A DNA stretch of 64,000 bases from an uncultured Candidatus Saccharibacteria bacterium (lineage in GTDB: Bacteria > Patescibacteriota > Minisyncoccia > Phycocordibacterales > WO2-35-19). Where the stretch lies: the NCBI GenBank assembly GCA_964548205.1, contig CAZJPJ010000001.1:60086-124085 (forward strand), read 5' to 3'. Position numbers and translations under genes: made by a program. The notes under the pieces are model-generated. The model had not been told where the DNA came from. It saw only the letters and a program-made list of their open reading frames with translations, and did not search any database. Positions 11,827 to 58,566 of this stretch are shown here, piece by piece (the first letter of the stretch is position 1; each line of letters begins with the position of its first letter).

Positions 11827-12900
11827 TTAGACCACTGTATATAATCCTTGCTTATTTTTCTTGAAGTATTTTGGATTTTGCAGGTTTACTAGTATGGTGT
11901 TTTCTTTTACATAGCGTTCTTTGAGCACGTTTTTCATGATGTCTTCCTTAGAAAGTGGTCCGTGTTTCTTTATTATATCCGCTATCACTTCTCGTACTAC
12001 ACCAGTCTTATAACCCCATTCTTTCAGAGCATAAAGACCTCGTCCTACAAGTACAAATCTAGAATCTTTGATAAGTTCGTTGTGAGTAGTAGCTACATGA
12101 GCCTTCTTTTTAAATATTTGAGTTATTAGTTTGGCTACTTCTCTGAAATGTATCGGAGAACCATGTTGTCTTAGTATCAAGTAAGCATAATCCCTAACTC
12201 CTTTTGTTTTGATATTTGAGGACTTGGATTTGCCCCATTCGCCCAGAGGATTTTTGGCTATGTTTTTAGAAATAGAAAGCCAACGTGTTAGTATTTCGTC
12301 TTGTTTATAATCTTCAGATACGTCCTTCAAGTGGTCTAGAAAATTCGACACCATATCAGACTCTGGGATAATTTCATCGTCATCTAGTTTTGAGTACATG
12401 TTTTTGAGAGCGTCATGTATTCTGTCTGAGAGCTCTTTGTCTATATGCCATCTATGGTGGTAGTCGGTGTCCTCTTTTAGCTTGTGAAATTCGTCTCCTA
12501 CTACAAGGATAAAGTGGATATATTTCTTTGTAGTTTTTTCTTTGGAGAGTAAGTTTAAAAGCTCTTCTTCAGATACTATACTACCCATCTCCTTAATCAC
12601 TCCTTTCAATTCAGCAAAAACTCCCTCTTCTTTTTTATAGTTTTCAGACTTTCTTATGTGATTTATGGCATAATTTTCTATCTGTCTAACTCGCTCTCTT
12701 GTTATGCCGTATTTTTTGCCGATAGCTTCAAGGGTCATATCTTCTCCAGTCTGATTTAGGCCAAAACGTCCGGAAATAACATCCTGAGCCCTAGCAGGCA
12801 ATGATGCCAAAAGGCGCTTTACAACCTGCTTTGGATTGAAGCTCAGAGTATATACTTTTGCTTTGTTTTCGCTCTTCTTCATAATTAAATTAGACCACAA
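11827..12900 (-). CDS. sigma-70 region-4 domain protein with a C-terminal HARE-HTH-like winged helix
   Basis: N-terminus LEAIGKKYGITRERVRQIENYAINHIRK is sigma70 region 4. C-terminus DYAYLILRQHGSPIHFREVAKLI...GRGLYALKEW resembles HARE-HTH (RpoE-delta/Mrr N-terminal type). Confidence 0.5.
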   Translation of the reverse strand: MWSNLIMKKSENKAKVYTLSFNPKQVVKRLLASLPARAQDVISGRFGLNQTGEDMTLEAIGKKYGITRERVRQIENYAINHIRKSENYKKEEGVFAELKGVIKEMGSIVSEEELLNLLSKEKTTKKYIHFILVVGDEFHKLKEDTDYHHRWHIDKELSDRIHDALKNMYSKLDDDEIIPESDMVSNFLDHLKDVSEDYKQDEILTRWLSISKNIAKNPLGEWGKSKSSNIKTKGVRDYAYLILRQHGSPIHFREVAKLITQIFKKKAHVATTHNELIKDSRFVLVGRGLYALKEWGYKTGVVREVIADIIKKHGPLSKEDIMKNVLKERYVKENTILVNLQNPKYFKKNKQGLYTVV

Positions 12901-12962: not shown

Positions 12963-15900
12963 TTAAGCCACTATATTTAGGAGCTTGTTTGGGACAAAGA
13001 TAACTTTTTTTATATCCCTGTCCCCTATCCACTTTTGGATTTCGGGCAGAGATAGAGCTTTTTCTTTTGCTGTACTTTCGTCGATATTTGCTTCTGCTTC
13101 GAAGCTGGCTCTAACTTTGCTGTTGACTTGTACGACGATAGTTACTTTTTCTTCTTTGATTTTATTTTCATCATACTCTGGCCACTTTTCTAAATGTATG
13201 GACGTCTTATTTCCTATGTCGGATTTATCCCGCGAAGCCTCGGCGAAGTGGGACCAAAGCTCTTCTGTGATATGAGGGGCAAAGGGGCCTAAAATTTTTA
13301 AGAATTTTTCAAAATCTTCTCTTTCAACTTGCGTCTTTCCACTTTCCAACTCATTTACATATATCATCATTGCTGATATGGCAGTATTGAATTTGTAGTT
13401 TTCTATATCCTCAGTAACTTTCTTGATAGTTTTGTGAAGCAAGGTTTCAAGTTTGGTGTTTTTTTCATCAGAGTTTATTTGTGATTTAGAGTTTGGTTCT
13501 TGTAAATTGATTCCAATTCTCCACACTCTCTCCAAAAACCTCCTAACTCCTGCTATGCCTCCAAGGTCCCAAGGGTATTGCCCCACTTCGTTGTATGGAC
13601 CTATGAAAGCAAGATAAAGTCTGACTGTATCTGCTCCTACTTTTGAAACCCATTCATCCGGATCGATGACATTGCCTTTGCTCTTACTCATCTTTTGCCC
13701 ATCTGGTCCGAGTATCAAGCCTCTGTTCATCCTGATTTTGTATGGCTCGCTTTCTTGTACCAAACCCATGTCGAAAAGGGCTTTGTGGAAAAATCTTGAA
13801 TAAAGCAAGTGCATAGTAGTATGCTCGGCTCCGCCTGAGTATCTATCTACAGGCATCCAAGATTTGATTTTGTTTTCTATTTCTCTATTTTCAAATTGTT
13901 TGGAAATCGGAGCTTGAGACTTGAGATTTTCGCGTATGCAATAAGCGAGAAAATACCAAGACGAGTCGACAAACGTATCCATAGTATCGAGTTCGGGTTT
14001 CCAACCTTTACCAAATATTTTTTCAGTTTTTTCTACCAACTCTTTCGAGCTACCAAGTGGTGAAGTCCCCTTAGGTAAAAAGTCTATATTGTCCTCTGGT
14101 AAGAGCCAAGGCAGATGCTCTTCTGGTATCGGGTGTGGCTGGCCTTCTGTATCATAGACCATAGGTATAGGGCAGCCCCAATATCTCTGTCTGCTTAGTA
14201 ACCAGTCTCTCAGTTTGTATTTGGTCACTTTTTGTCCGTACTTTTCTGCGATTTTATCTCGGGCTTGTACTGACGTCATTCTTGTAAATTCTTTGGAATC
14301 AAACAGCACCCCTTCTTCTACAAAAGCTTTTTCTTCAGAATTTAGATTTTCCAAAATCAGAGACATCTCGCTATGAGTCATGTCCTTCTGTTTTATACCT
14401 GTCAGATCTCTCCATTCCAATTCATGTATTTCTGATTCTTCGGCTGAAAGTTCGTCTTGTTCTTCGTCTGTTAGTTCAAAAAGTAAGTTTCTTGTGTGAG
14501 CGATCCTGTTTACATCCTTATGAGCGGCAAAAAATTCAGATTGTGCAATACCGAGTTTTTTTACAAATCTAAAATTTTTGTAACCGGTCTCTTCTTTTAT
14601 TTCTCTCTCAGCCGCTTCTATTTCTGTTTCGCCTTCTTCTATGCCCCCCATCACAAAGGTGACCCAAGGATGCTTTTTCCATTTCAAACACAAGTATTTG
14701 TCAGTTTTTGGATTTCTCACTACCACTATCACTGCATCCCTAAAGATAGTTTCCTTGCCTTCTCTGTGAGGGTTCCTTGGGTCGGGCATTTTTTGGATAA
14801 CCACGCTTTTTGTTGGTAAGTTGTATTTCTTTGCAAAAGTAAAATCACGCTCATCGTGGGCTGGTACGGCCATGACAGCTCCAGTGCCGTAGTTGCCTAG
14901 GACATAATCTGCTACCCATACTGGCAACTCTTCTCCTGTGGCAGGGTGGATGGCCTTGATACCCTTTAGTTCCACTCCAGTCTTTTGCTTTTTGGCATCA
15001 GTTCTTTCTATTTCTGTTTTACTTTTTGTCTCGTTTAAATAATTTTGGATTTCTTGCTTATTTGTAATTTGCGATTTGGAATTTGTGATTTCTTGTTGCA
15101 GCCATTCATTTTCTGGCGCAATCACAATATATGTAACTCCAAAGAGAGTATCGGCTCGTGTTGTGAAGACCTTGACTTCCCCCTGAAAGCTAGAAGCTAG
15201 AAGCTTAAAGCTAATTTCTGCTCCGCTACTTTTCCCTATCCAATTTCTCTGGGTGTCTTTGATCGGTTCAGGCCAGTCTAGGTTTTCCAAGTCGGAAAGA
15301 AGCCTCTCGGCATAATCAGTGATTTTGAAAAACCATTGCTCCAGATCTTTTTGGACCACTTCGCTTCCGCACCTTTCGCACTCACCACTTACCACCTGTT
15401 CGTTTGCAAGTACAGTCTGATCATTCGGGCACCAGTTGACCTTGGCTTTCTTTTTATAAACCAGACCTCTTTTATAAAACTCCAAGAAGAGCCATTGGGT
15501 CCACCGGTAATATTCTGGATCAGAAGTGACAACTTTGCGTGACCAGTCGAAGGAGTTGCCCATGCTCATGAGCTGCTTCTCCATATGAGCAATGTTTTCG
15601 TAAGTCCATTTTTTAGGATCGATGTTTCTCTTTATGGCGGCATTTTCTGCTGGTAGGCCGAACGCGTCGAAACCTATGGGGAATAAGACATTGTGCCCCT
15701 GCATCCTTTTTGCTCGTGCAAAAATATCTGGCACTGCAAAGGCGTACCAGTGGCCTATGTGCAAATTGCCGGATGGGTATGGGAATTCTACAAGAGTATA
15801 AAAATTGTCCCTACCCTTCACTTCATCAGCGACTTCGTAAAGATTGTTTTTTTTCCAGATTTCTTGCCACTTCGCTTCTATCGTTCTATGATCATAAATT

Positions 15901-15980
15901 TCTTTTGCTTGCCCGTCCGAAGCTTTAGCGGAGGCGGGCCACTTCCCCTCTATCTCTTTGTGATCATAATTTTTTTCCAT
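12963..15980 (-). CDS. leuS: leucine--tRNA ligase with an inserted NUDIX-box domain
   Basis: HIGH motif (NLHIGHWYAF), editing-domain motif TTRADTLFGVT, KMSKS motif (QKMSKSKGNVIDP), and 1005 aa in total. Residues around 395-550 carry the NUDIX box GGIEEGETEIEAAEREIKEETGY. Confidence 0.9.
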   Translation of the reverse strand: MEKNYDHKEIEGKWPASAKASDGQAKEIYDHRTIEAKWQEIWKKNNLYEVADEVKGRDNFYTLVEFPYPSGNLHIGHWYAFAVPDIFARAKRMQGHNVLFPIGFDAFGLPAENAAIKRNIDPKKWTYENIAHMEKQLMSMGNSFDWSRKVVTSDPEYYRWTQWLFLEFYKRGLVYKKKAKVNWCPNDQTVLANEQVVSGECERCGSEVVQKDLEQWFFKITDYAERLLSDLENLDWPEPIKDTQRNWIGKSSGAEISFKLLASSFQGEVKVFTTRADTLFGVTYIVIAPENEWLQQEITNSKSQITNKQEIQNYLNETKSKTEIERTDAKKQKTGVELKGIKAIHPATGEELPVWVADYVLGNYGTGAVMAVPAHDERDFTFAKKYNLPTKSVVIQKMPDPRNPHREGKETIFRDAVIVVVRNPKTDKYLCLKWKKHPWVTFVMGGIEEGETEIEAAEREIKEETGYKNFRFVKKLGIAQSEFFAAHKDVNRIAHTRNLLFELTDEEQDELSAEESEIHELEWRDLTGIKQKDMTHSEMSLILENLNSEEKAFVEEGVLFDSKEFTRMTSVQARDKIAEKYGQKVTKYKLRDWLLSRQRYWGCPIPMVYDTEGQPHPIPEEHLPWLLPEDNIDFLPKGTSPLGSSKELVEKTEKIFGKGWKPELDTMDTFVDSSWYFLAYCIRENLKSQAPISKQFENREIENKIKSWMPVDRYSGGAEHTTMHLLYSRFFHKALFDMGLVQESEPYKIRMNRGLILGPDGQKMSKSKGNVIDPDEWVSKVGADTVRLYLAFIGPYNEVGQYPWDLGGIAGVRRFLERVWRIGINLQEPNSKSQINSDEKNTKLETLLHKTIKKVTEDIENYKFNTAISAMMIYVNELESGKTQVEREDFEKFLKILGPFAPHITEELWSHFAEASRDKSDIGNKTSIHLEKWPEYDENKIKEEKVTIVVQVNSKVRASFEAEANIDESTAKEKALSLPEIQKWIGDRDIKKVIFVPNKLLNIVA

Positions 15981-16035
15981 TGATCAAAATATACAATAAA
16001 AAATGATTTTTTCATAACCACCAGAATGCTTTTTG

Positions 16036-16085
16036 ACAGAAAAAAGCCCAACGGCTCAAATACCTGTATTTGAGCCGTTGGGCTA
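16036..16085 (-). terminator. 19-bp perfect stem AGCCCAACGGCTCAAATAC, loop ctg, GTATTTGAGCCGTTGGGCT, with a T6 run on the minus strand; lies in the leuS 5' leader
   Basis: It sits 55 nt upstream of the leuS start. Further upstream, GAACGGCTCA repeats part of the 5' stem half and could form an alternative antiterminator pairing. Confidence 0.5.
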
Positions 16086-16145
16086 GAGGCTGTGAGCCGT
16101 TCGATAGACTCACGATAAACCGCTAAATTTGACTCATGATTAAGC

Positions 16146-16174
16146 AATATTGTGAAGTACGGCACAATATTGAC
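16146..16174. promoter_or_regulatory. 10-bp perfect inverted repeat CAATATTGTG, 9-nt spacer, CACAATATTG, overlapping the -35 of the NfeD operon promoter
   Basis: Read directly. It lies in the divergent region between the leuS leader and the nfeD promoter. Confidence 0.4.
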
Positions 16175-16198
16175 AAAAAACCTATATGTACTATAATT
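16171..16198 (+). promoter_or_regulatory. consensus sigma70 promoter: TTGACA, 16-nt spacer, TATAAT; SD AAGGAG 6 nt before the ATG at 16245
   Basis: Exact hexamers read from the sequence. Confidence 0.55.
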
Positions 16199-16244
16199 GT
16201 GACCAGACCTGGAAACAGGAATTGTAGTTTAACAAGGAGTAAGA

Positions 16245-16814
16245 ATGTCGAGCTTATATCAGCTTGCGAACTCAATGCATTTTGCGTGGATCGCGTTGTT
16301 CGGTACAGCAATGCTGTGTCTATCTCTCTTTTTCGGTGGTGATCATGACCACGAGGTCGATCATGGTGCCGATGGGGGCGGAGAACACGATGCTGACCAC
16401 GGCGGCGATGGAAACATGTCTATCTTGTCGTTCAAAGTGTTGTGGATGTTCATGGTTGGCTTCGGTGCTGGAGGCTACTTCGGTGCTCAAGCTAAAGCGA
16501 CTGTTCTCGGTGCTTCCATGTCCGGGCTCTTAGCGGGTCTCATAATGGGCGCGCTTGGATATGTCGCTATGAACTATCTGTACCGACACCAAGGCAACAG
16601 CGTCACGAAGACGAGTTCTGTCGTTGGGTCCACTGCTGTAGTGGACACGGCAATTTTGCCTGGCCAACTTGGTGAGGTGAAGTGCATCACTGACGGTCGC
16701 ACGGAATACTTTTCGGCACAATCAAATGTCGGGACACCGATTCCGGTGGCGTCGAGAGTTAAAGTGGTAGACTCAACGGGCAGCGTGCTCGTAGTAGAGC
16801 CATACAACAACTGA
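16245..16814 (+). CDS. NfeD-like membrane protein (short form, C-terminal OB-fold), partner of SPFH/flotillin proteins
   Basis: His/Asp-rich N-terminus and TM helices, then C-terminal GEVKCITDGRTEYFSAQSNVGTPIPVASRVKVVDSTGSVLVVEP (NfeD beta-barrel). It immediately precedes the flotillin gene. Strongly GC-rich. Confidence 0.7.
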   Translation: MSSLYQLANSMHFAWIALFGTAMLCLSLFFGGDHDHEVDHGADGGGEHDADHGGDGNMSILSFKVLWMFMVGFGAGGYFGAQAKATVLGASMSGLLAGLIMGALGYVAMNYLYRHQGNSVTKTSSVVGSTAVVDTAILPGQLGEVKCITDGRTEYFSAQSNVGTPIPVASRVKVVDSTGSVLVVEPYNN

Positions 16815-16834
16815 TCAACAAAAAGGAGAAAAAC

Positions 16835-18598
16835 ATGCAGATTACAAACGACCTCTGGTCTATCATTGCAACCCCAATCATAATCTTGCTCGTAGTGGCA
16901 GCAATCGGTGGGCTCTTACACACACTGAGCAATCGCTACGTCAAGGTTCCTCCGCAGAAGGCACTCATCGTCTATGGCGGCGGGAAAACTCGCGTTGTGT
17001 CTGGTGGTGCCAAGTTCGTAATGCCGTTCGTCGAGAACTTTTTCTTTCTCGACCTGTCGCTGTTCCAGTTCAACGTCTCATTGGAAAATGTGCCAAACAA
17101 GGACAGTGTGCCGGTCAACGTGAAGGCAAGTGTTTCGGCGAAGATTAGCAACAAGGAGGAGATGCTCCCTGTTGCGGCTGGCATTTTCGGCGAGGGCTCG
17201 CTCAAAGAGATTTCGGATAAGGTTCGCGGCATTGTCGACGGCCACGTCCGAGCACTCATCGGCCAGTCCGACATGGAAACCATCCTGCGTGACCAGGATA
17301 CCTTCAAGCAGCAGATCAGCAACCTCGTTTCAACCGAGATGGCTAAAATCGGCTGCGAGATTATCGTCCTGAACATTCAGGAAGTCAGCGATCCTCACGG
17401 GGTCATCGAATCTTTGGGCAAACCGAAGATCGCTGAGGTGAAAGCCGAAGCGGCCATTCGAGAAGCCGAGCAGACTCGACGCCAGACCATCGATACCACC
17501 AACGCTCAGCGCGAAGCTGAGAAGGTGGCTGCTGCCAACAAGGCGCAGATCGCCGAGGCCCAGCGTGATCTAAACACCAAGCAGGCCGGTTACGACGCGG
17601 AAGTGGCCAGGCAGCGAGCAATCGCTGCTCAAGCTGGTCCGCTCGCCGAAGCCGAAGCCCGCAGGGGTGTGGTTGTGGCGGAGGTGGCGGTCGAAGAGGC
17701 TGACACCGAGGCTCGGACCAAACTGCAAGGCAAGGTCAAGGAGCTGAAGAAAGCCGAACTCGACGCTAACCTCATAACCGAGGCTAATGCCAAGGCGGAA
17801 CAATCCGTCATTGTGGCGGAGGGTGCTAAGAAAGCGGCGGTTATCACCGCAGAAGCGGCACGCACCAAACTCACCATCGAGGCTGAAGCTGCGGCGTCTG
17901 CTCGCGAAAAGAAGGCCGAGGGTGATCGTAAGGCTCTCGAACTCGAGGGTCAGGGCGAAGCGGCTAAGGCCAAGCTGGTCGGCGAAGCTGCGGCGGAAGT
18001 CGCTCGCAAAACCGGTGAAGGCGAAGCGGCGGCGAAGAAGGCGAACCTTCTAGCTGAAGCTGAAGGTCGTGAAGCCAATGCCAAAGCGACGCAAGCTCAA
18101 CTTTTGGCTGAAGCCGAAGGTCAGAAGGCCAAGGCAGCTGCAACCAAGGAAGAATTGCTTGCACGCGCGGCTGGTACGGAAGCCGAACTGCTTGCTCAGG
18201 CAATGGGTGTGGCTAAAATGTTGGAAAACTTCCAAGATCTCACTCCGGAGCAGATGAGAATGCTCCAGACCAAGTGGGTTCTGGAAATCCTTCCTTCAGC
18301 CATCGAGAAACTCGGTGGTGCCGGCGAAAAGATCATGGCTGAAGTAGCTAAGCCAATTGCGGCAGCTCTTGGGTCCATCGATAACATCACTGTGTACGAT
18401 TCTGGCTCCGGTACCAATGGTGCTGGTGGCCTAGAACGCTACGCGAAGATCGCTCCGCAGGCACTCATGCAGGCCTTCATGTCATTGAAGGAAACTGGCA
18501 TGTTGCCGATGGTCGCGACGGCTTTGAAGAAGGCTGGTGTGGATGTGTCCTCTCTTATGCCAATGGGCACTGAAGACGACACGGCCAAGCTGTCGTAG
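16835..18598 (+). CDS. floT: flotillin-like SPFH (band 7) protein (FloT/YuaG-like)
   Basis: N-terminal TM, SPFH domain (KALIVYGGGKTRVVSGG...ILRDQDTFKQQISNLV), then a long Ala/Glu-rich coiled-coil (EA repeats) and a C-terminal flotillin tail. About 60% GC by eye against an AT-rich backbone. Confidence 0.85.
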   Translation: MQITNDLWSIIATPIIILLVVAAIGGLLHTLSNRYVKVPPQKALIVYGGGKTRVVSGGAKFVMPFVENFFFLDLSLFQFNVSLENVPNKDSVPVNVKASVSAKISNKEEMLPVAAGIFGEGSLKEISDKVRGIVDGHVRALIGQSDMETILRDQDTFKQQISNLVSTEMAKIGCEIIVLNIQEVSDPHGVIESLGKPKIAEVKAEAAIREAEQTRRQTIDTTNAQREAEKVAAANKAQIAEAQRDLNTKQAGYDAEVARQRAIAAQAGPLAEAEARRGVVVAEVAVEEADTEARTKLQGKVKELKKAELDANLITEANAKAEQSVIVAEGAKKAAVITAEAARTKLTIEAEAAASAREKKAEGDRKALELEGQGEAAKAKLVGEAAAEVARKTGEGEAAAKKANLLAEAEGREANAKATQAQLLAEAEGQKAKAAATKEELLARAAGTEAELLAQAMGVAKMLENFQDLTPEQMRMLQTKWVLEILPSAIEKLGGAGEKIMAEVAKPIAAALGSIDNITVYDSGSGTNGAGGLERYAKIAPQALMQAFMSLKETGMLPMVATALKKAGVDVSSLMPMGTEDDTAKLS

Positions 18599-18600
18599 AC

Positions 18601-18640
18601 ATGTAGGGCCGAGCAAGCAGCTCGGCCCTACATTTTAAGG
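18601..18640 (+). terminator. hairpin ATGTAGGGCCGAGC, loop aagca, GCTCGGCCCTACAT, then TTTAAGG
   Basis: 14-bp perfect stem immediately after the floT stop. Confidence 0.6.
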
Positions 18641-18653
18641 AGAAAGGAAAAAG

Positions 18654-19109
18654 ATGAGAACTTATACTTCAAGTAGTGTCTGGAACGACAAACGGCCAAG
18701 TGCCTTAGTTGTATACTGTAGCGATGGAAGGTTCCATCAACACATCCAAGAATTTGTTGACATGGGGCTCGGTATACCTGAGAGCGATCTCTTGGCTATC
18801 CCTGGTGGGCCGCATGCGCTACAACATGTCTCTGCTTATCCTAAGGCACGGTGGGCAAGCAAGTTTTTTCTTGAGTTCTTAGCCAAGCATCACCAGATTT
18901 CTCGGATTGTTCTAATCGGGCACGAGGGGTGCGCGTGGTATCGATCGGTGGTTTTTCAGGAGGTCGAGCTCAATGTGCTTAGAGATCGACAAAGTAAAGA
19001 TCTGAAGAACGTGCTGGGTCTAGTGAAGGAGACGCACCCAGGAGCCACAGTCGAGTTGTACTTCGCTAGACCAAAAGGAGATTCGGTGGAGTTCACTTTG
19101 ATTAAGTAG
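18654..19109 (+). CDS. hypothetical protein with beta-carbonic-anhydrase-like Cys/Asp/His motifs
   Basis: VVYCSDGRF and LIGHEGCAW resemble the beta-CA zinc-site motifs C(S)D(S)R and HxxC. The product is only 151 aa, so the assignment is tentative. GC-rich. Confidence 0.35.
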   Translation: MRTYTSSSVWNDKRPSALVVYCSDGRFHQHIQEFVDMGLGIPESDLLAIPGGPHALQHVSAYPKARWASKFFLEFLAKHHQISRIVLIGHEGCAWYRSVVFQEVELNVLRDRQSKDLKNVLGLVKETHPGATVELYFARPKGDSVEFTLIK

Positions 19110-19128
19110 CGACTTCTTACCCCATGGT

Positions 19129-19170
19129 CCGGCGTTTCCCTAGGGGGAGCGCCGGGCTATTTCTTTTGAC
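19129..19170 (+). terminator. hairpin CCGGCG, 15-nt loop, CGCCGG, then CTATTTCTTTT
   Basis: Read directly after the stop of the 18654..19109 ORF. Confidence 0.5.
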
Positions 19171-19221
19171 AATTTTTAGTTTTTACTTGCCCCCTGCTTT
19201 GTATGGGGGTATATTTTTTAT

Positions 19222-19758
19222 ATGGACGATGAAGAAGAAAAACAAGAGGATAAGAAGATAGGTGCAGAATCAGAATCAAAAGCTAAGACAGAAGAATCTA
19301 TAGAAAGTGCTGACCAAGCTCTCGATCAGCCGGACGCATCTGAAAATATAGAGGTGAAGAAGGAAGAAGAACCGGAAGAGCATATTGTAGTAGAAAAGAT
19401 AGGTAATAAGACGGTTGAAAGAAGAGGGGGTGATGTCACTATCACAGAAGTGATGCAAGAAGAGCCCGCCCCGCCAAGGGCGGGGCGGGCCTCAGAATCA
19501 GTCGCCTTCCCTGCCCCGTTCACACAAAAAGGTCTTTGGCAACAGTATTTGCAAAAAACTAACGAAAGAAAAAGAAAGAAGCTCGATAAGATAGTGGAGT
19601 ATTTGAACAAAAATCAAAAAATATCGAACGATCAAGTAGAAAAACTTTTGCGTGTCTCTGATGCTACGGCTACACGGTATCTAGACCAGCTCGAGAAAGA
19701 AAACAAAATAAAACAAGTAGGAACGACCGGAAGACATACTCATTATGTTTTGTCCTAA
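19222..19758 (+). CDS. acidic protein with a C-terminal winged-helix DNA-binding domain
   Basis: N-terminus is Glu/Asp/Lys-rich low complexity. C-terminus ISNDQVEKLLRVSDATATRYLDQLEKENKIKQVGTTGRHTHYVL is DeoR/FaeA-like wHTH. A GC-rich palindrome (19471-19497) is embedded in-frame. Confidence 0.5.
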   Translation: MDDEEEKQEDKKIGAESESKAKTEESIESADQALDQPDASENIEVKKEEEPEEHIVVEKIGNKTVERRGGDVTITEVMQEEPAPPRAGRASESVAFPAPFTQKGLWQQYLQKTNERKRKKLDKIVEYLNKNQKISNDQVEKLLRVSDATATRYLDQLEKENKIKQVGTTGRHTHYVLS

Positions 19759-23682: not shown

Positions 23683-24297
23683 TTGAAAATCAAGACAATG
23701 TTGTTGGCGGTGTTAGCCGTCTTTCTGATGCTCGTCTCGCCCGCCGCGGCGGGGCTGATCGATGGTTTCGACGTATCTCAAGCCGAACTGACCACGACTG
23801 GTTGCAACGGACCTGTGGCGATCGGCGGAGGTGTGACTCGGGGGATGTGTCTCACGTCAAACGGTGGCGTCCCGCCGGTGGATCACCGGTCTGTCATCGA
23901 CTTTGGTGTCCTTGAGATCAACAATGGCACCGGCGATGACAGCGATGTTGTATTGACCTATTCCGGGCTATCCCTGCCGTCGGGTGGTTACTTCTACATC
24001 CAAGCCTCGCTGGATGGGAATCCGGCAATGATCACCTTTGGAGGTACGGCGTCGGGGGTCATCAACTTGGCTCCCAATACCACCATGGCGTGGTATCAAA
24101 CCACGGCTCAGGGGGCGATTACCAGCGATGTGACACTAACCTTCACTGGTGCGCGAGGGTACGATTTGCAGGCTGATAATTTCGGCCATCAGGCCGTCCC
24201 CGAGCCGGGGACGACCGCACTACTCGGCCTCGGCCTTGCAGGCCTCGGCCTCGCGCGGCGGCGCGATCGGATCGTCGCCGCAATCAAACGGGAGTGA
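23683..24297 (+). CDS. PEP-CTERM sorting-domain secreted protein
   Basis: Signal peptide MKIKTMLLAVLAVFLMLVSPAAA. C-terminus VPEPGTTALLGLGLAGLGLARRRDR is the PEP motif, a hydrophobic helix and an Arg cluster. TTG start at 23683 per the ORF track, or ATG at 23698. Very GC-rich. Confidence 0.7.
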   Translation: MKIKTMLLAVLAVFLMLVSPAAAGLIDGFDVSQAELTTTGCNGPVAIGGGVTRGMCLTSNGGVPPVDHRSVIDFGVLEINNGTGDDSDVVLTYSGLSLPSGGYFYIQASLDGNPAMITFGGTASGVINLAPNTTMAWYQTTAQGAITSDVTLTFTGARGYDLQADNFGHQAVPEPGTTALLGLGLAGLGLARRRDRIVAAIKRE

Positions 24298-39120: not shown

Positions 39121-39855
39121 TTATTCGCGGAGCTGTCGCCGCCGCCGGCGTCTGGCTATGCCAAGACCGAGCAGTCCAGCGCCGGCAAGGAAAAATGTTG
39201 TCGGCTCTGGCACTTCTCCGCCGGGTGGCGGACAGTGTCCCCCGCGACACTCGTACGTGGCACTTAGTGCCACAGAGATCGCGAGGGGGTAGGCCTCAAA
39301 CCCGTCGTTTTTGTAGACGTCGAAGTTGAAGCTCTCGAAGCCGTCCTTCAACCACTTGGTGACATCGAAGGTCGATATGGTTCCCTGTGGGACCAAACTC
39401 CCGACTCCTCCGATGTTGAACCATGTGCTCGATCCCGTCGGAGAGTCGACGATCAGTGAGGCGCTGAGGATTCTGCAATCCTCAGGTACTTCATAATCGA
39501 GGTATCCCCAGAACACTTTTTCTTGGACGACGCCGTTAAATACAGCACTGACGAAGTCGGCCCCGTACGGGCCGCCTCCGCCTTGGTTGAGTATATCGGC
39601 CTCGACCATCAGATGTTCCTCTGGCATCACGAACAGTAAAGTGTTGCATCTCGGGTCAGTTTGACCCGTTCCGCAAAGCTCCAAGAATGTCGAGTCGTGA
39701 CGCGGCGCAGGGCCGAGGTGTGGCCCATCGGGCGGATGCCCGATGACACCGGCGGAGACGGTGGCTGGCGCGACGGCCAGCGCGAGCAACAAAACGGCCA
39801 ACAGCGTGGTCAGAAGATGGGGGCCGAAGCCCCAGACTAGACCTTTTGCGGTCAT
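39121..39855 (-). CDS. PEP-CTERM sorting-domain secreted protein (second copy, not a close paralogue of the first)
   Basis: Signal peptide; C-terminus GGEVPEPTTFFLAGAGLLGLGIARRRRRRQLRE. SD AAGGAG 6 nt before the ATG. Very GC-rich. Confidence 0.7.
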   Translation of the reverse strand: MTAKGLVWGFGPHLLTTLLAVLLLALAVAPATVSAGVIGHPPDGPHLGPAPRHDSTFLELCGTGQTDPRCNTLLFVMPEEHLMVEADILNQGGGGPYGADFVSAVFNGVVQEKVFWGYLDYEVPEDCRILSASLIVDSPTGSSTWFNIGGVGSLVPQGTISTFDVTKWLKDGFESFNFDVYKNDGFEAYPLAISVALSATYECRGGHCPPPGGEVPEPTTFFLAGAGLLGLGIARRRRRRQLRE

Positions 39856-41370: not shown

Positions 41371-43782
41371 CTAGGTTATCGAATGCCCTCCAAACTGATT
41401 GCGCAGAGCGCTAAGGACTTTACCAGTGAAAGAAGGCATATCTCCCGAATGGATACGAAACTCAAGCGAGCCTTCTATGATCTTGGCTTCGAGCCCCATC
41501 TCCTTGGCCGCTTCGATTGTCCACTTACCCTCTCCTGTGTGAGCGACAGTGCTCGATATTTGCTCTAAATCATTGCCGTACAGTACTAGAGCTTTTTTGA
41601 GCCAACCGACAAGCCGCGACTCGATGACGCTGCCGTGGTTATAAATATCAGCTACTTCAGTCAGGTCTAGTTTGTACTCTGAATTTTTCATTATATTAAA
41701 CCCCTCGGCTATAGCCTGCATCATGCCGTACTCGATACCATTGTGGACCATTTTTACAAAGTGTCCAGCTCCGGCTCCATCGAAAAATTTATAGCCGTTT
41801 GGTATGCTTATGTCTCTAAATACTTTTTCTACTTTTTCAAACACTTCTCTTTCTCCTCCGATCATGATCGAAGCTCCGTTTCTAGCACCGCTTGGACCAC
41901 CAGAGACTCCTGCGTCTACAAAATATATACCCCCCTCTTTCAACTTCTGAAATCTTCTCTTGCTATCGTTGAAGTTTGAATTGCCTCCGTCTATTACGAT
42001 GTCTCCTTTTTCCAAGCTATCCGAAAGTCCTTCTTCGAACAATACTTTATCTATGGTCTCTCCGGCAGTGAGCATCAACCATATAATTGTGGGAGATTTT
42101 TTTTCTGCTTTTATTTTTTCTACCATATCTTTCACACCTATCGTCTTTAGCATGCCTTCTCTTGATAACTCTTCCACTATTTCTTGTGATCTGTTGTGGC
42201 CGTATATCCTATAACCTTTCTCTAGTAATTGTCTAACAAGTCCAGCTCCCATTTTGCCTAGACCGACAATACCTATGGTATTTGTTTTTTCTACTTCTAT
42301 AATATTTTTTTCTATGTGTGCTGATTTGTCACTTGCTTCGAATGTATCTGGTTTGTAGCTATCGAGGGTTACTAGATCATTCTTCCAGGCAGATACTATG
42401 GGGTCCACAAATCTCCACATGGCCGCCACTTCTTTGCTCGATACGAAGAGGGTCTGGTTGCCAGCTATACAGTCTAGAAGCAGTTTCTCGTATTCTTCGG
42501 TATACTGACTTCTCTCGGTCAATTCTCGGTATGGCAATATGACCTCTCTTTTTTCTGTCTCATAAGTCAACCCAGGCTTTTTTGACCAAAGTTCTATCAC
42601 TATTTCTTCTTTTGGTTCTAGTTTTATGATTACTTTATTTTTGTGGTGACCACTATTGTTGCCGCAAAGACACGGACTCGGATGTTTAAATGTGACCACG
42701 ATTTCTTTTATCTGTTCTTTCATCCTTTTTCCAAACTCCATGGTTATGGGCACTCCTACCCATTTATCATGTCTCAGTTCTGCCTTTACCTTGAAGTAGG
42801 TTTCGGTCTTAGAATCTTCTCGTACCCCTTCTATTTGTCTGAAGCCTATATATTGAGACCTGTATGTATTTGAGACTATAAAATCTTTTTCCGGTGTCAC
42901 CAAAGTTTCTAGTATCTCCTCTCTTTTTTTTATTATCGAAGACGCTTCGAAACTCTTTGGGTGTTCCATGGTAAGTAACGCAAGGATTTGAATCAGGTGG
43001 TTTTGACCTACGTCTCGGAAGGCTCCTATTTTGTCATAGAAGGCGCCGCGTTTTTCTACCCCCAGTGTTTCCCAAAGTTTTATTTCTATCTTCTCGATAA
43101 ATCTGTTGTTCCAATTTTCTTCAAAAATATTGTTTGAAAATCTAAAAGAAAGAATGTTTTGCAGCATTTCTTTTGCTAGATAGTGATCTATCCTATATAT
43201 CTGTTCCTCCTTAAACAATTCTCCGAGTTGGGTATCCAATTTTTCTGCTGTTTTCATATCTTCACCGAATGGTTTTTCTACTATGATGCGAGTCCAACCT
43301 TCGAGCGGCCCACAGCCGTCGGCAAGACCAGATTTTTTTAGATGGGTGAATATGTTTACATACAATTCTGGGGGCACGCTAAGGTAGAAAAGCTTGTTAG
43401 TGCATATACCGACTTTCTGATCGAAAGACGAAAGTAATTTTTTAAGTTCTAGGTAAGAAGCATCTTCATTCAAATCACCTCTATGGTACTCAAACAGTTC
43501 CAAGAAATCATGAAGATTATTAGAATCTTTGATTTTTTGACTATGTCTTATAAGTGCTTCTCTTGCAAATTCTCTGTAGCCTTGGTTGCCTAGATCTTTT
43601 CTAGCAAAGGCTACTATTTTGAAATAATCAGGCAGATTACCTTTGTTATATAAGTGAAAAAGTGAGGGTATTATCTTTCTTTGAGTTAGGTCTCCAGTAG
43701 CTCCGAATATAGTCAGAGTCGTAGGTATATTTGAGCGAGCTTCCATATTGTGCAGCATTATAGCATAACCAAAAGCACCCAC
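41371..43782 (-). CDS. zwf-gnd: bifunctional fusion: glucose-6-phosphate dehydrogenase (N-terminal) and 6-phosphogluconate dehydrogenase, decarboxylating (C-terminal)
   Basis: N-terminal half has TIFGATGDLTQRKIIPSLFHLY, EKPFGEDMKTAEKLD and RIDHYLAKEM (G6PD). C-terminal half has IGIVGLGKMGAGLVRQLLEKGY and VKMVHNGIEYGMMQAIAEGF (6PGDH). A single 803-aa ORF. Confidence 0.8.
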   Translation of the reverse strand: MGAFGYAIMLHNMEARSNIPTTLTIFGATGDLTQRKIIPSLFHLYNKGNLPDYFKIVAFARKDLGNQGYREFAREALIRHSQKIKDSNNLHDFLELFEYHRGDLNEDASYLELKKLLSSFDQKVGICTNKLFYLSVPPELYVNIFTHLKKSGLADGCGPLEGWTRIIVEKPFGEDMKTAEKLDTQLGELFKEEQIYRIDHYLAKEMLQNILSFRFSNNIFEENWNNRFIEKIEIKLWETLGVEKRGAFYDKIGAFRDVGQNHLIQILALLTMEHPKSFEASSIIKKREEILETLVTPEKDFIVSNTYRSQYIGFRQIEGVREDSKTETYFKVKAELRHDKWVGVPITMEFGKRMKEQIKEIVVTFKHPSPCLCGNNSGHHKNKVIIKLEPKEEIVIELWSKKPGLTYETEKREVILPYRELTERSQYTEEYEKLLLDCIAGNQTLFVSSKEVAAMWRFVDPIVSAWKNDLVTLDSYKPDTFEASDKSAHIEKNIIEVEKTNTIGIVGLGKMGAGLVRQLLEKGYRIYGHNRSQEIVEELSREGMLKTIGVKDMVEKIKAEKKSPTIIWLMLTAGETIDKVLFEEGLSDSLEKGDIVIDGGNSNFNDSKRRFQKLKEGGIYFVDAGVSGGPSGARNGASIMIGGEREVFEKVEKVFRDISIPNGYKFFDGAGAGHFVKMVHNGIEYGMMQAIAEGFNIMKNSEYKLDLTEVADIYNHGSVIESRLVGWLKKALVLYGNDLEQISSTVAHTGEGKWTIEAAKEMGLEAKIIEGSLEFRIHSGDMPSFTGKVLSALRNQFGGHSIT

Positions 43783-56939: not shown

Positions 56940-57824
56940 TTATTTCAACTTGTCGATCTCAATCTTTTTCATCTCAAGCATTGCTTTCATCGCGCTTTCT
57001 CTTTTTTCTTTGTCTTCTGAGTTTAGTATCTCTTCCATCCCCTTTGGTACGATTTGCCAAGAGACTCCATGCTTATCTTTGAGCCAGCCACATTGTTCTG
57101 CCTCTGGTACTGCAGAAAGGGCCTCCCAATATTTGTCTATCTCATTCTGGTCTTCGCACTCTACTATCAAAGAAAAGGCCTCATTGAAAGTAAACTTGTG
57201 CGGGCCGCTGCTGTCCATGGCCATAAAGCTGTTGCCGCAAAGGGTAAATCTAGCGTGTTTCAAGTTGTCTTCGCTATCATCATCGTCTGGGTCATAGGGT
57301 AACAACAGATCGATTTTTGAGTTATCAAATATTTTTGTATATGTCTCTATGGCTTCTCTTGCCTTACCTGTTACATCCTGAGTAAACATAAACAAAGGCG
57401 TTATTTTTTGCCCTTCCTTCACTGGCAGACCCCAAGATAATTGCCAAGAAAGACCATATTTGTCATTTAGCCAGCCGTACTTTAAAGCCCATGGATAATC
57501 TCTAAATTCCATCAACACTTCACCTCCTTCTACCAACTTGTTCCATGCATTAGTTATCTCTTCTTCGTTTTCAAATTGTACAAACAAAGATATCGAAGGG
57601 TTTATCTTGAACACTGGGCCGCCGTTTAGTGCGAGCATCCTTAGACCTTCGAGCTCAAACGACACTGTCATAGTACTGCCCGGGGTTTGTCCGTGTATTT
57701 CATTTCCAGCTTCTGGGTATTTTGTTGTACTGAGTATTTTGCTGTTTTTGAATACAGAAGAGTAAAACTTTGCAGCATCTTCTGCTTCTCTGTCGAACCA
57801 AATATTCGGTATGATTTTTTGCAT
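56940..57824 (-). CDS. VOC/glyoxalase-fold protein (PhnB-like), tandem duplicated domain
   Basis: Two repeats of the IWFD...A..FY...F...Y.WA/Y.W. pattern (MQKIIPNIWFDREAEDAAKFYSSVF, then ...GWLKDKHGVSWQIVP). The ORF track start is 57848. Confidence 0.6.
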   Translation of the reverse strand: MQKIIPNIWFDREAEDAAKFYSSVFKNSKILSTTKYPEAGNEIHGQTPGSTMTVSFELEGLRMLALNGGPVFKINPSISLFVQFENEEEITNAWNKLVEGGEVLMEFRDYPWALKYGWLNDKYGLSWQLSWGLPVKEGQKITPLFMFTQDVTGKAREAIETYTKIFDNSKIDLLLPYDPDDDDSEDNLKHARFTLCGNSFMAMDSSGPHKFTFNEAFSLIVECEDQNEIDKYWEALSAVPEAEQCGWLKDKHGVSWQIVPKGMEEILNSEDKEKRESAMKAMLEMKKIEIDKLK

Positions 57825-57825
57825 C

Positions 57826-58566
57826 TTATTGTTTTTTAAATCCTTCAAATGCCTTCAATATCTCAAGTGGGATTGTAAATATTACTGTATTAGACTGATC
57901 TGAAGAAAGATCGTTTATGGATTGTAGAGTGCGCAAATGTAGTGCTCCCTCGGTGGTAGTAAGGATCCTGGCAGCTTCTGCCATGTTTTGCGCAGCAGCA
58001 AGTTCTCCTTCAGAGTTTATGATCACAGCCCTCTTTTCTCTTTCTGCTTCTGCTTGCTTTGCTATAGTACGCTCCATGTCTGACGGCAGGCTTATGTCTT
58101 TGAGCTCTACGTTGCTCACCTTTAGGCCCCAAGCGTCTGTCTCTTTGTCTACTATCTGCAATATACGATCAGCCAGCTTTTCTCTGTTGGCCAGAAGTTC
58201 GTCGAGTGTCACTTCGCCGACTATGTTGCGCATAGTTGTTTGAGCGTATTGCGATATGGCGTATTTGAAATCTTCTACTTCTAGTATGGCTTTTTCTGCG
58301 GACTCTACTTTGTAATATATAACTGCGTTTACTTTGACCGACACGTTGTCTCTTGTTATTCCTTTCTGGTCGGGCACATCTACTGCCTTTACACGCATGT
58401 CTACTTTGCTTGCACTCTGAAATATCGGCAACACCAAGCGCCACCCGGGGTCCATAATTCCCGAAAATCTACCCATAGTAAATCTTACCCCCCTTTCATA
58501 TTCGTTGACCTGCCTCAGGCTGGAGAGGAAGATCATGAGTAGCACAAAAAACAATAGGTAAGACAT
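57826..58566 (-). CDS. SPFH/band-7 protein (stomatin/prohibitin-like, QmcA-type)
   Basis: N-terminal TM; SPFH core YERGVRFTMGRF...AVIYYKVESAEKAI...AEREKRAVIINSEGE. Confidence 0.8.
   Translation of the reverse strand: MSYLLFFVLLMIFLSSLRQVNEYERGVRFTMGRFSGIMDPGWRLVLPIFQSASKVDMRVKAVDVPDQKGITRDNVSVKVNAVIYYKVESAEKAILEVEDFKYAISQYAQTTMRNIVGEVTLDELLANREKLADRILQIVDKETDAWGLKVSNVELKDISLPSDMERTIAKQAEAEREKRAVIINSEGELAAAQNMAEAARILTTTEGALHLRTLQSINDLSSDQSNTVIFTIPLEILKAFEGFKKQ

Follow-up and report, generated by a model that had tools for sequence, protein, structure and literature searches.

An nfeD-flotillin operon with a conserved beta-carbonic-anhydrase-like third gene in a bacterium of the candidate phyla radiation

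The subject of this analysis is a short operon in a 64,000-nucleotide (nt) stretch of DNA, hereafter the window, with feature coordinates given as window positions. The host belongs to the Patescibacteria, part of the candidate phyla radiation (CPR), and has a G+C content of approximately 42%; the placement follows from its leucyl-tRNA synthetase, whose best named homologues come from Patescibacteria, Zambryskibacteria and Pacebacteria, and the DUF5671 gene near the operon agrees with it. Three head-to-tail open reading frames (ORFs) on the plus strand, at 16245-16814 (189 amino acids, aa), 16835-18598 (587 aa) and 18654-19109 (151 aa), encode a short NfeD protein, a flotillin and a small protein that, by its Pfam family, its zinc motifs and its predicted fold, is beta-carbonic-anhydrase-like. 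Pairs of NfeD and flotillin genes are textbook knowledge. The role of bacterial flotillins is debated, the proposals being a raft scaffold, a membrane-fluidity factor or a holder of unfolded proteins, and most of the work comes from a handful of model species whose nfeD-flotillin operons have two genes. As judged from comparison of many genomes, the third gene described here is a conserved partner of the nfeD-flotillin pair across many bacterial lineages. The elements of the operon are as follows.

16170-16197, plus strand: sigma-70-type promoter, TTGACA-16 nt-TATAAT, matching the consensus at 12 of 12 positions and the sole perfect site in 15900-19400
16245-16814, plus strand: nfeD gene of the short YuaF/YqiJ type, 189 aa (Pfam NfeD; family profile against YuaF, 2K14)
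16835-18598, plus strand: gene for a flotillin-type SPFH protein, 587 aa (Band_7; match to human flotillin-1/2)
18600-18640, plus strand: GC-rich intercistronic hairpin followed by UUUU, between the flotillin gene and the third gene (folding energy, conservation)
18654-19109, plus strand: gene for a Pro_CA_2 protein, 151 aa (PF20393, predicted fold, zinc motifs)
19124-19168, plus strand: intrinsic terminator at the operon end (hairpin 19124-19160, then a T-run)

Window positions 16170 to 19168 form a single transcription unit on the plus strand, from promoter to terminator. An earlier note on this DNA, made by reading the letters alone, had described a GC-rich three-gene operon behind a consensus promoter, and both the perfect promoter and an operon G+C of 0.539 agree with that description. 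Each of the three ORF starts is preceded by a ribosome-binding site of the AAGGAG type, and the gap between nfeD and the flotillin gene is 20 nt. The terminator consists of a 17-bp stem with 10 GC pairs followed by TTCTTTT (-30.2 kcal/mol, z = -3.7). The intercistronic hairpin at 18600-18640 folds at -28.8 kcal/mol (z = -7.85), and none of 200 shuffled sequences folded equally well. A homologous hairpin with its structure kept (11 pairs, 2 of them with compensatory changes) is present at three related loci, L121, L123 and L124; loci L001 and L003 carry analogous elements of hairpin and T-run. The hairpin may act as an attenuator or as a stabilizer of the mRNA end. Upstream, the neighbouring gene leuS lies on the opposite strand and has its own terminator, and downstream the operon is followed by genes for a helix-turn-helix (HTH) protein and a DUF5671 protein.

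Hydrophobic segments span aa 11-32 and 85-109 of the first protein, whose C-terminal part (aa ~120-189) is an OB-fold domain. The Pfam NfeD model of the C-terminal domain (PF01957) scores 26.1 bits, slightly below its gathering score of 29.1, and a profile of 15 NfeDs from operons of this kind matches the YuaF structure 2K14 over aa 120-186 (E = 1.1e-6), as well as the stomatin operon partner 3WWV (E = 1.4e-3) and 2K5H. The window protein also shows a weak YqiJ_N match and is 60% identical to the NfeD of L121. By these sequence criteria the protein is a short NfeD of the type that partners flotillins, in keeping with the short form recognized earlier. Between the first two hydrophobic segments lies a His/Asp-rich loop, DHDHEVDHGADGGGEHDADHGGDG (aa 37-60, window 16353-16424), which is strongly His-rich in the nearest relatives and variable family-wide. 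The possibility that this loop is a metal-binding trait peculiar to third-gene operons was considered; as its enrichment was weak (at least four His in 40% against 18%) and its variability great, the loop was discarded as evidence.

The second protein possesses an N-terminal membrane anchor (aa 3-34), an SPFH domain (aa 37-214; Band_7, 100 bits, E = 1.6e-28), an Ala/Glu-rich coiled coil and a C-terminal flotillin region. The coil, whose length and composition had already been remarked upon, comprises 29% Ala and 15% Glu over aa 215-460. The nearest solved structures are those of human flotillin-1/2 (9BQ2, 9L3G; E = 1.4e-32, aa 40-420), the matches to stomatin (E = 1e-4) and QmcA (8e-4) being much weaker. 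The Flot domain PF15975 reaches 17.4 bits against a gathering score of 27, and the NCBIfam equivalog model for FloT, NF058507, reaches 165 bits against a cut-off of 700. Given the match to flotillin-1/2 and a FloT score so far under its cut-off, the protein is a flotillin of the SPFH2 subfamily and no orthologue of Bacillus subtilis FloT; the label 'FloT-like' that it had been given is apt at the level of the subfamily and fails at that of the equivalog. An anti-phage defence system was considered and rejected, PADLOC having returned a weak coiled-coil match between the flotillin and LmuB, and none for the other two proteins.

As the earlier note had pointed out, the window holds another SPFH gene of native composition, at 57826-58566 on the minus strand (G+C 0.439). 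Its 246-aa product is stomatin/HflK-like (Band_7, 146 bits) and shares 19% identity with the operon flotillin; it is therefore a paralogue and no duplicate, and the idea that the flotillin system is an 'accessory duplicate' has to be given up. The start of this gene and the end of a VOC-family gene (56940-57848) have 23 nt in common, and since no ORF of at least 100 aa lies between it and the next gene upstream, it has no obvious NfeD partner.

The third protein passes the PF20393 (Pro_CA_2) model with 32.0 bits, against a gathering score of 30, over aa 17-138; the catalogue entry for this family reads 'putative carbonic anhydrase' and nothing further. An AlphaFold2 model built on a 60-sequence alignment has a mean predicted local distance difference test score (pLDDT) of 94.5, and when it was compared with the PDB by Foldseek, 50 of 50 among the matches listed were beta-carbonic anhydrases (beta-CAs), with E values from 8e-6 and a probability of 1.00. 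Two motifs, CSDGR (aa 22-26) and HEGC (aa 90-93), had first suggested a likeness to the beta-CA zinc site, and this likeness is upheld: a family profile places both CSDxR and HxxC in register with the zinc motifs of the yeast beta-CA Nce103 (3EYX, E = 6.3e-5), and a smaller profile places the second motif in register with pea CA (1EKJ). The putative zinc ligands Cys22, His90 and Cys93 are invariant in 70/70 flotillin-linked members of the family. The window protein further has Asp24 and Arg26, the Asp-Arg dyad that is regarded as essential in beta-CAs. Because it keeps both the Cys/His/Cys set and the dyad, hydration of the CO2 type is the simplest reading of its putative zinc site, and its being an active carbonic anhydrase is a conceivable, if somewhat doubtful, proposition. 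Other conserved positions are specific to the family, namely PGG (aa 50-52), Tyr96, Gln113 and Asp116. The protein has no hydrophobic segment (maximum Kyte-Doolittle hydropathy 0.86) and is soluble.

An exhaustive profile search for this family gave 810 cluster representatives at E <= 1e-3, 301 of them at E <= 1e-10. Most members are stand-alone proteins of ~150 aa; the domain fusions, of which one involves a PP-binding domain and several an unknown N-terminus, are uninformative. No canonical beta-CA that could serve as a reference was found in the DNA of the loci examined. The start of the window gene is placed at 18654 because of the alignment with homologues and the ribosome-binding site; a public gene call, P0001 (115 aa), begins at Met37, and with it the first zinc motif, CSDGR, is lost (window 18654-18761). 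Public gene calls can thus cut off the first zinc motif of PF20393 proteins. At locus L122 the third gene (11887-12213) is called as 108 aa, starting past the first Cys motif and 113 nt from the flotillin gene, and it is either truncated or miscalled at its start.

Conservation of the three-gene set was followed from both sides. Starting from the third gene, with one genome per species (35 loci, 33 evaluable), nfeD and the flotillin gene immediately precede it, with order and strand conserved, at 27/33 loci, whose record titles name Acidobacteriota, Bipolaricaulota/Acetothermia, Fraserbacteria, Thermotogae-labelled metagenome-assembled genomes (MAGs), Armatimonadia and Dehalococcoidia. Starting from the flotillin, a metagenome scan (80 loci, 71 evaluable) found the third gene -4 to 273 nt downstream at 40/71 loci and nearby at 3 more (43/71), a fraction that is inflated, as the search patterns were seeded from operons bearing the third gene. 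Individual look-ups of close flotillin relatives, including a Taylorbacteria MAG (L127), revealed a Pro_CA_2 gene downstream in 7/7 cases. Altogether, the trio occurs, with the same order, strand and short spacing, at ~85 loci that carry the labels of seven or more bacterial lineages, and in several of these the flotillin stop and the third-gene start overlap by 4 nt. All-against-all clustering of the neighbouring ORFs yielded three recurrent families, the flotillin (108 loci), NfeD (93) and the third gene (79), and no fourth conserved gene. The suggestion that a carbonic-anhydrase-like gene is a conserved and so far undescribed companion of nfeD-flotillin is borne out on both counts: a literature search, with subscription journals outside its reach, found no link of flotillin, NfeD or SPFH operons with such a gene, and nothing relevant on PF20393/Pro_CA_2.

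The history of the operon is best read against locus L121 (GCA_034680565.1), which is syntenic and in which nfeD, the flotillin gene and a Pro_CA_2 gene likewise lie between leuS and the DUF5671 gene. Between the window and L121, host proteins are 78% (sigma-70 region 4), 73% (DUF8128), 63% (YceG) and 61% (YchF) identical, and the leucyl-tRNA synthetases (LeuRS), which have the same NUDIX insertion, and the DUF5671 proteins are each 48% identical. Since the operon is at the same site in L121, the site was occupied before the two lineages split, and a simple recent insertion does not account for it. The next gene downstream differs between the two.

Within the operon, the flotillin and the third gene tell different stories. 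The window flotillin is 63-79% identical to those of L119 and L121-L126 (66-79% over L119, L121-L124 and L126), and the third protein is 26-32% identical to its counterparts at L119, L121-L124 and L126. Its closer relatives are found elsewhere, at L001 (60%) and L003 (45%) and in the protein P0002 (68%), and the flotillins of L001 and L003 are ~36% identical to that of the window. When 70 loci were cross-tabulated, the window was the only member of flotillin cluster 1 with a third gene of cluster 2; the other six carry cluster 4. Because the third protein is so distant from the partners of the closest flotillins, and because the clades are mismatched, the third gene seems to have been replaced in situ by a distant homologue, and the homology of the hairpin with those of L121, L123 and L124 would place the replacement junction past the hairpin but ahead of the start codon. 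Nothing is left in the window of a displaced clade-B third gene, tblastn having recovered the present gene alone. That a distant relative from within the family apparently refilled the slot is, in our view, the strongest argument that the scaffold needs such a protein; it also suggests a link that either is one of function, and not a tight interface peculiar to a clade, or operates via a conserved surface. By these comparisons the module appears to have entered the host lineage before the split from the syntenic relative, in an acquisition that is old and mosaic.

In the explanation that we favour, all three genes would be expressed from the one consensus promoter, and the hairpin and U-tract past the flotillin gene would probably admit only part of the transcripts to the third gene, the outcome being many scaffold subunits and few enzyme subunits. 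NfeD would be a membrane protein with a cytoplasmic OB-fold, and flotillin and NfeD together would form a large membrane-attached ring or dome at the cytoplasmic face, by analogy with solved SPFH assemblies such as the 22+22 barrel of flotillin-1/2 (bioRxiv 10.1101/2024.05.09.593390) and the SPFH-NfeD cage of Escherichia coli YbbK-YbbJ (PMC13086221). The third product, as a small soluble protein with a putative zinc site, would be a dedicated cytoplasmic partner of this scaffold and would work at or inside the flotillin microdomain, hydrating CO2 or a similar small molecule. Shown by the sequence comparisons are the gene content, the signals, the predicted fold, the motifs, the conservation of the trio, the synteny and the clade mismatch; we infer the physical association with the scaffold, the expression ratio, zinc binding and catalysis. 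As for the history, the module would have entered the lineage horizontally before the split from the syntenic relative, and its third gene would later have been replaced in situ from another operon clade. That the third protein is a functional partner of NfeD and flotillin we regard as highly probable, and the explanation as a whole, a three-gene scaffold module with a zinc partner of beta-CA fold, as reasonably likely.

Several observations weigh against this explanation. At 28/71 evaluable loci of the flotillin-side scan, or ~40%, the third gene is absent, and six loci have the third gene but no flotillin, in contexts unrelated to one another, so that the pairing, though frequent, is not obligatory. 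The pairwise identities of the flotillins and of the third proteins correlate (r = 0.80, Mantel 0/999), which speaks for the pairing, but shared species history would produce such a correlation as well. With respect to enzymatic function, the third protein scores 16.6 bits on the canonical Pro_CA model (PF00484), under the gathering score of 25.7, and the likeness of its model to beta-CA structures is moderate, with template-modelling (TM) scores of 0.43-0.59. Furthermore, Asp24 and Arg26 are each kept in 47/70 flotillin-linked members and the dyad is absent from 23/70, so that CO2 hydration cannot be the function common to the whole family; with Cys/His/Cys present in all 70, the common denominator is the zinc site and not the beta-CA dyad. 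The sub-clades without the dyad belong to Bipolaricaulota, Fraserbacteria and Dehalococcoidia (loci L012, L013, L019, L022, L023, L029, L032-L034, L037, L038 and others), have for example CSSNAF or CSEPGV in place of the first motif, and retain Cys/His/Cys. A recurrent partner of the flotillin-less family members was also sought and rejected, their neighbours being heterogeneous (helicase, glycosyl hydrolase, hydantoinase, unknowns).

The sub-threshold score, the TM values of ~0.5 and the sub-clades of Bipolaricaulota and Dehalococcoidia that lack the dyad and keep the zinc ligands all favour a serious rival, namely that the third protein is a true partner of NfeD-flotillin but no carbonic anhydrase, and serves as a zinc-thiolate sensor, switch or adaptor with a beta-CA-derived fold. 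For instance, it could regulate scaffold assembly in response to redox state or zinc, or act as an enzyme on another substrate. The family's own conserved positions (PGG, Tyr96, Gln113, Asp116) would fit such a role, as would the gene for P0002, the closest homologue of the third protein, which adjoins a peroxiredoxin gene, and the reported part of the Staphylococcus aureus FloA-NfeD pair in stress protection (PMC11222466). What is hard to explain without catalysis is that the full CxDxR/HxxC set stands in beta-CA register in the window protein and in two thirds of its family, and the third protein contains no redox or regulatory domain. We consider the sensor or adaptor role to be a credible competitor that is, on present evidence, rather unlikely. 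A narrower version of the scaffold module, in which flotillin domes and NfeD would recruit or enclose a beta-CA-like zinc enzyme as a membrane micro-reactor for CO2/bicarbonate or local pH chemistry, is a speculation to which we assign a small probability. If it were true, a carbonic anhydrase relative would be the first conserved enzymatic client of prokaryotic flotillins, and the sub-clades lacking the dyad would be derived, non-catalytic versions.

The composition of the operon speaks to its origin. Its G+C of 0.539 compares with a mean of 0.416 +/- 0.022 over equally long, non-overlapping windows (maximum 0.482; z = 5.5), which makes the operon the G+C maximum of the window, and the G+C at third codon positions (GC3) is 0.56, 0.63 and 0.51 for nfeD, flotillin and third gene, against 0.41 +/- 0.08 for 38 other ORFs. 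Flotillins 63-79% identical to that of the window occur in hosts of 0.44-0.64 G+C, among them L119 (0.64), where the flotillin is also on a 6.2 Mb contig and the module adjoins the exosortase genes EpsH/EpsI, and L122 (0.58), where the module adjoins complex I genes. Identities of this order across such hosts are incompatible with vertical descent and indicate horizontal transfer. The GC3 of the operon is host-like in L121 and in the Taylorbacteria MAG L127, and the contrast is seen in the window alone, where it may reflect slow amelioration or the later exchange of the nfeD-flotillin alleles for those of a relative with higher G+C. No tRNA gene lies in the window and no integrase or transposase adjacent to the operon; flanking direct repeats were not searched for. 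The horizontal acquisition asserted in the earlier note is supported by the foreign composition and by the spread among hosts; a simple recent insertion gives way to an old acquisition, with the operon mosaic in the window and its site occupied in L121 too.

One might argue instead that the operon is native and owes its high G+C to an Ala/Glu-rich flotillin and to chance, as the syntenic relative has it at the same place, its composition is host-like in two other CPR genomes (L121 and L127), and Ala/Glu codons raise the G+C of first codon positions (GC1). However, GC3, which is mostly free of amino-acid effects, is raised in nfeD and the flotillin gene far above the host mean, the operon is the compositional extreme of the window, its flotillin is better conserved across hosts of widely differing G+C than LeuRS is even in the syntenic relative, and the third-gene clade is mismatched; a native origin is accordingly quite improbable. 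Least probable is that the third gene is a neighbour hitch-hiking with a mobile nfeD-flotillin pair without any functional link, an idea that draws on the related flotillin operons lacking the gene and on its solitary occurrence elsewhere, but that sits poorly with the constant order, strand and short spacing across lineages, with the overlapping start and stop codons, and with a slot that, once emptied, took up a distant homologue from the same family.

Several known systems resemble the module in part. In the B. subtilis operon yuaF-floT(yuaG)-yuaI, as in the window, a short NfeD and a flotillin are followed by a third small cytoplasmic enzyme-like gene, and the profile of the window NfeD family matches the structure of YuaF from that operon. 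According to Hinderhofer et al. 2009 (PMC2636767), YuaI shows no similarity to NfeD, and B. subtilis is the one species reported to have it in the operon. The third gene of the window, in contrast, encodes a zinc protein of predicted beta-CA fold that is unrelated to YuaI, a GNAT acetyltransferase, and is found in many lineages, and its flotillin is no FloT equivalog. E. coli yqiJ-yqiK and other two-gene nfeD-SPFH2 operons likewise place an NfeD with an acidic/His-rich loop before a flotillin-type SPFH gene, following the nfeD-SPFH operon logic already described (PMC2636767), but comprise two genes only, whereas the module in the window adds a conserved third gene and an internal hairpin.

With the beta-CAs themselves (PF00484; pea 1EKJ, yeast Nce103 3EYX, archaeal Cab 1G5C) the third protein shares its predicted fold and the Cys-x-Asp-x-Arg/His-x-x-Cys motifs; it differs in being only 151 aa long, in falling under the PF00484 threshold, in a TM score of ~0.5, in its own motifs and in the loss of the dyad from a third of the family. 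It may also be likened to the DAB CO2-hydration complexes (DabA/DabB), in which the activity of a beta-CA-like zinc protein depends on a membrane partner from the same operon. DabA is much larger, and in place of an SPFH scaffold it has a cation-translocating membrane subunit for a partner. That a protein family can be dedicated to the vicinity of a flotillin has a precedent in the flotillin-associated rhodopsin, which is always encoded beside a bacterial flotillin and co-transcribed with it (PMC10308929). Those clusters differ in that the partner is a membrane rhodopsin, in a 26-kb cluster of streamlined marine and freshwater bacteria, and not a soluble zinc protein.

If the partnership is as proposed, the third gene would offer a concrete, testable flotillin partner in the form of a small, soluble, easily purified zinc protein. 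A trio kept from Acidobacteriota to CPR bacteria would provide a hitherto undescribed handle on the function of bacterial flotillins, and the uncharacterised family PF20393 would gain a biological context. The distribution further shows that a membrane-organization module has been exchanged between CPR and large-genome bacteria.

Some minor features of the window deserve mention. The gene that follows the operon (19222-19758, plus strand) encodes an acidic N-terminal region and a DeoR-like winged helix, has native composition and its own weak promoter-like site, and has no homologous counterpart at the same place in L121. The leucyl-tRNA synthetase upstream (12963-15980, minus strand) contains a NUDIX hydrolase domain inserted at aa 413-534, past the editing domain. 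This insertion is common to most of the 120 best homologues listed, the named ones among the matches listed being from Patescibacteria, Zambryskibacteria and Pacebacteria, and some homologues have other inserts instead or additionally (PF04480/PF18741, alpha/beta hydrolase). Two further ORFs of foreign composition, at 23683-24297 on the plus strand and 39121-39855 on the minus strand (G+C 0.59, GC3 0.67), each carry a PEP-CTERM sorting motif at the end, and the window ORFs scanned included no exosortase. Finally, an 803-aa ORF at 41371-43782 on the minus strand combines glucose-6-phosphate dehydrogenase domains with the NAD-binding and C-terminal domains of 6-phosphogluconate dehydrogenase and, from this domain content, looks like a fusion of two dehydrogenases of the oxidative pentose-phosphate pathway.

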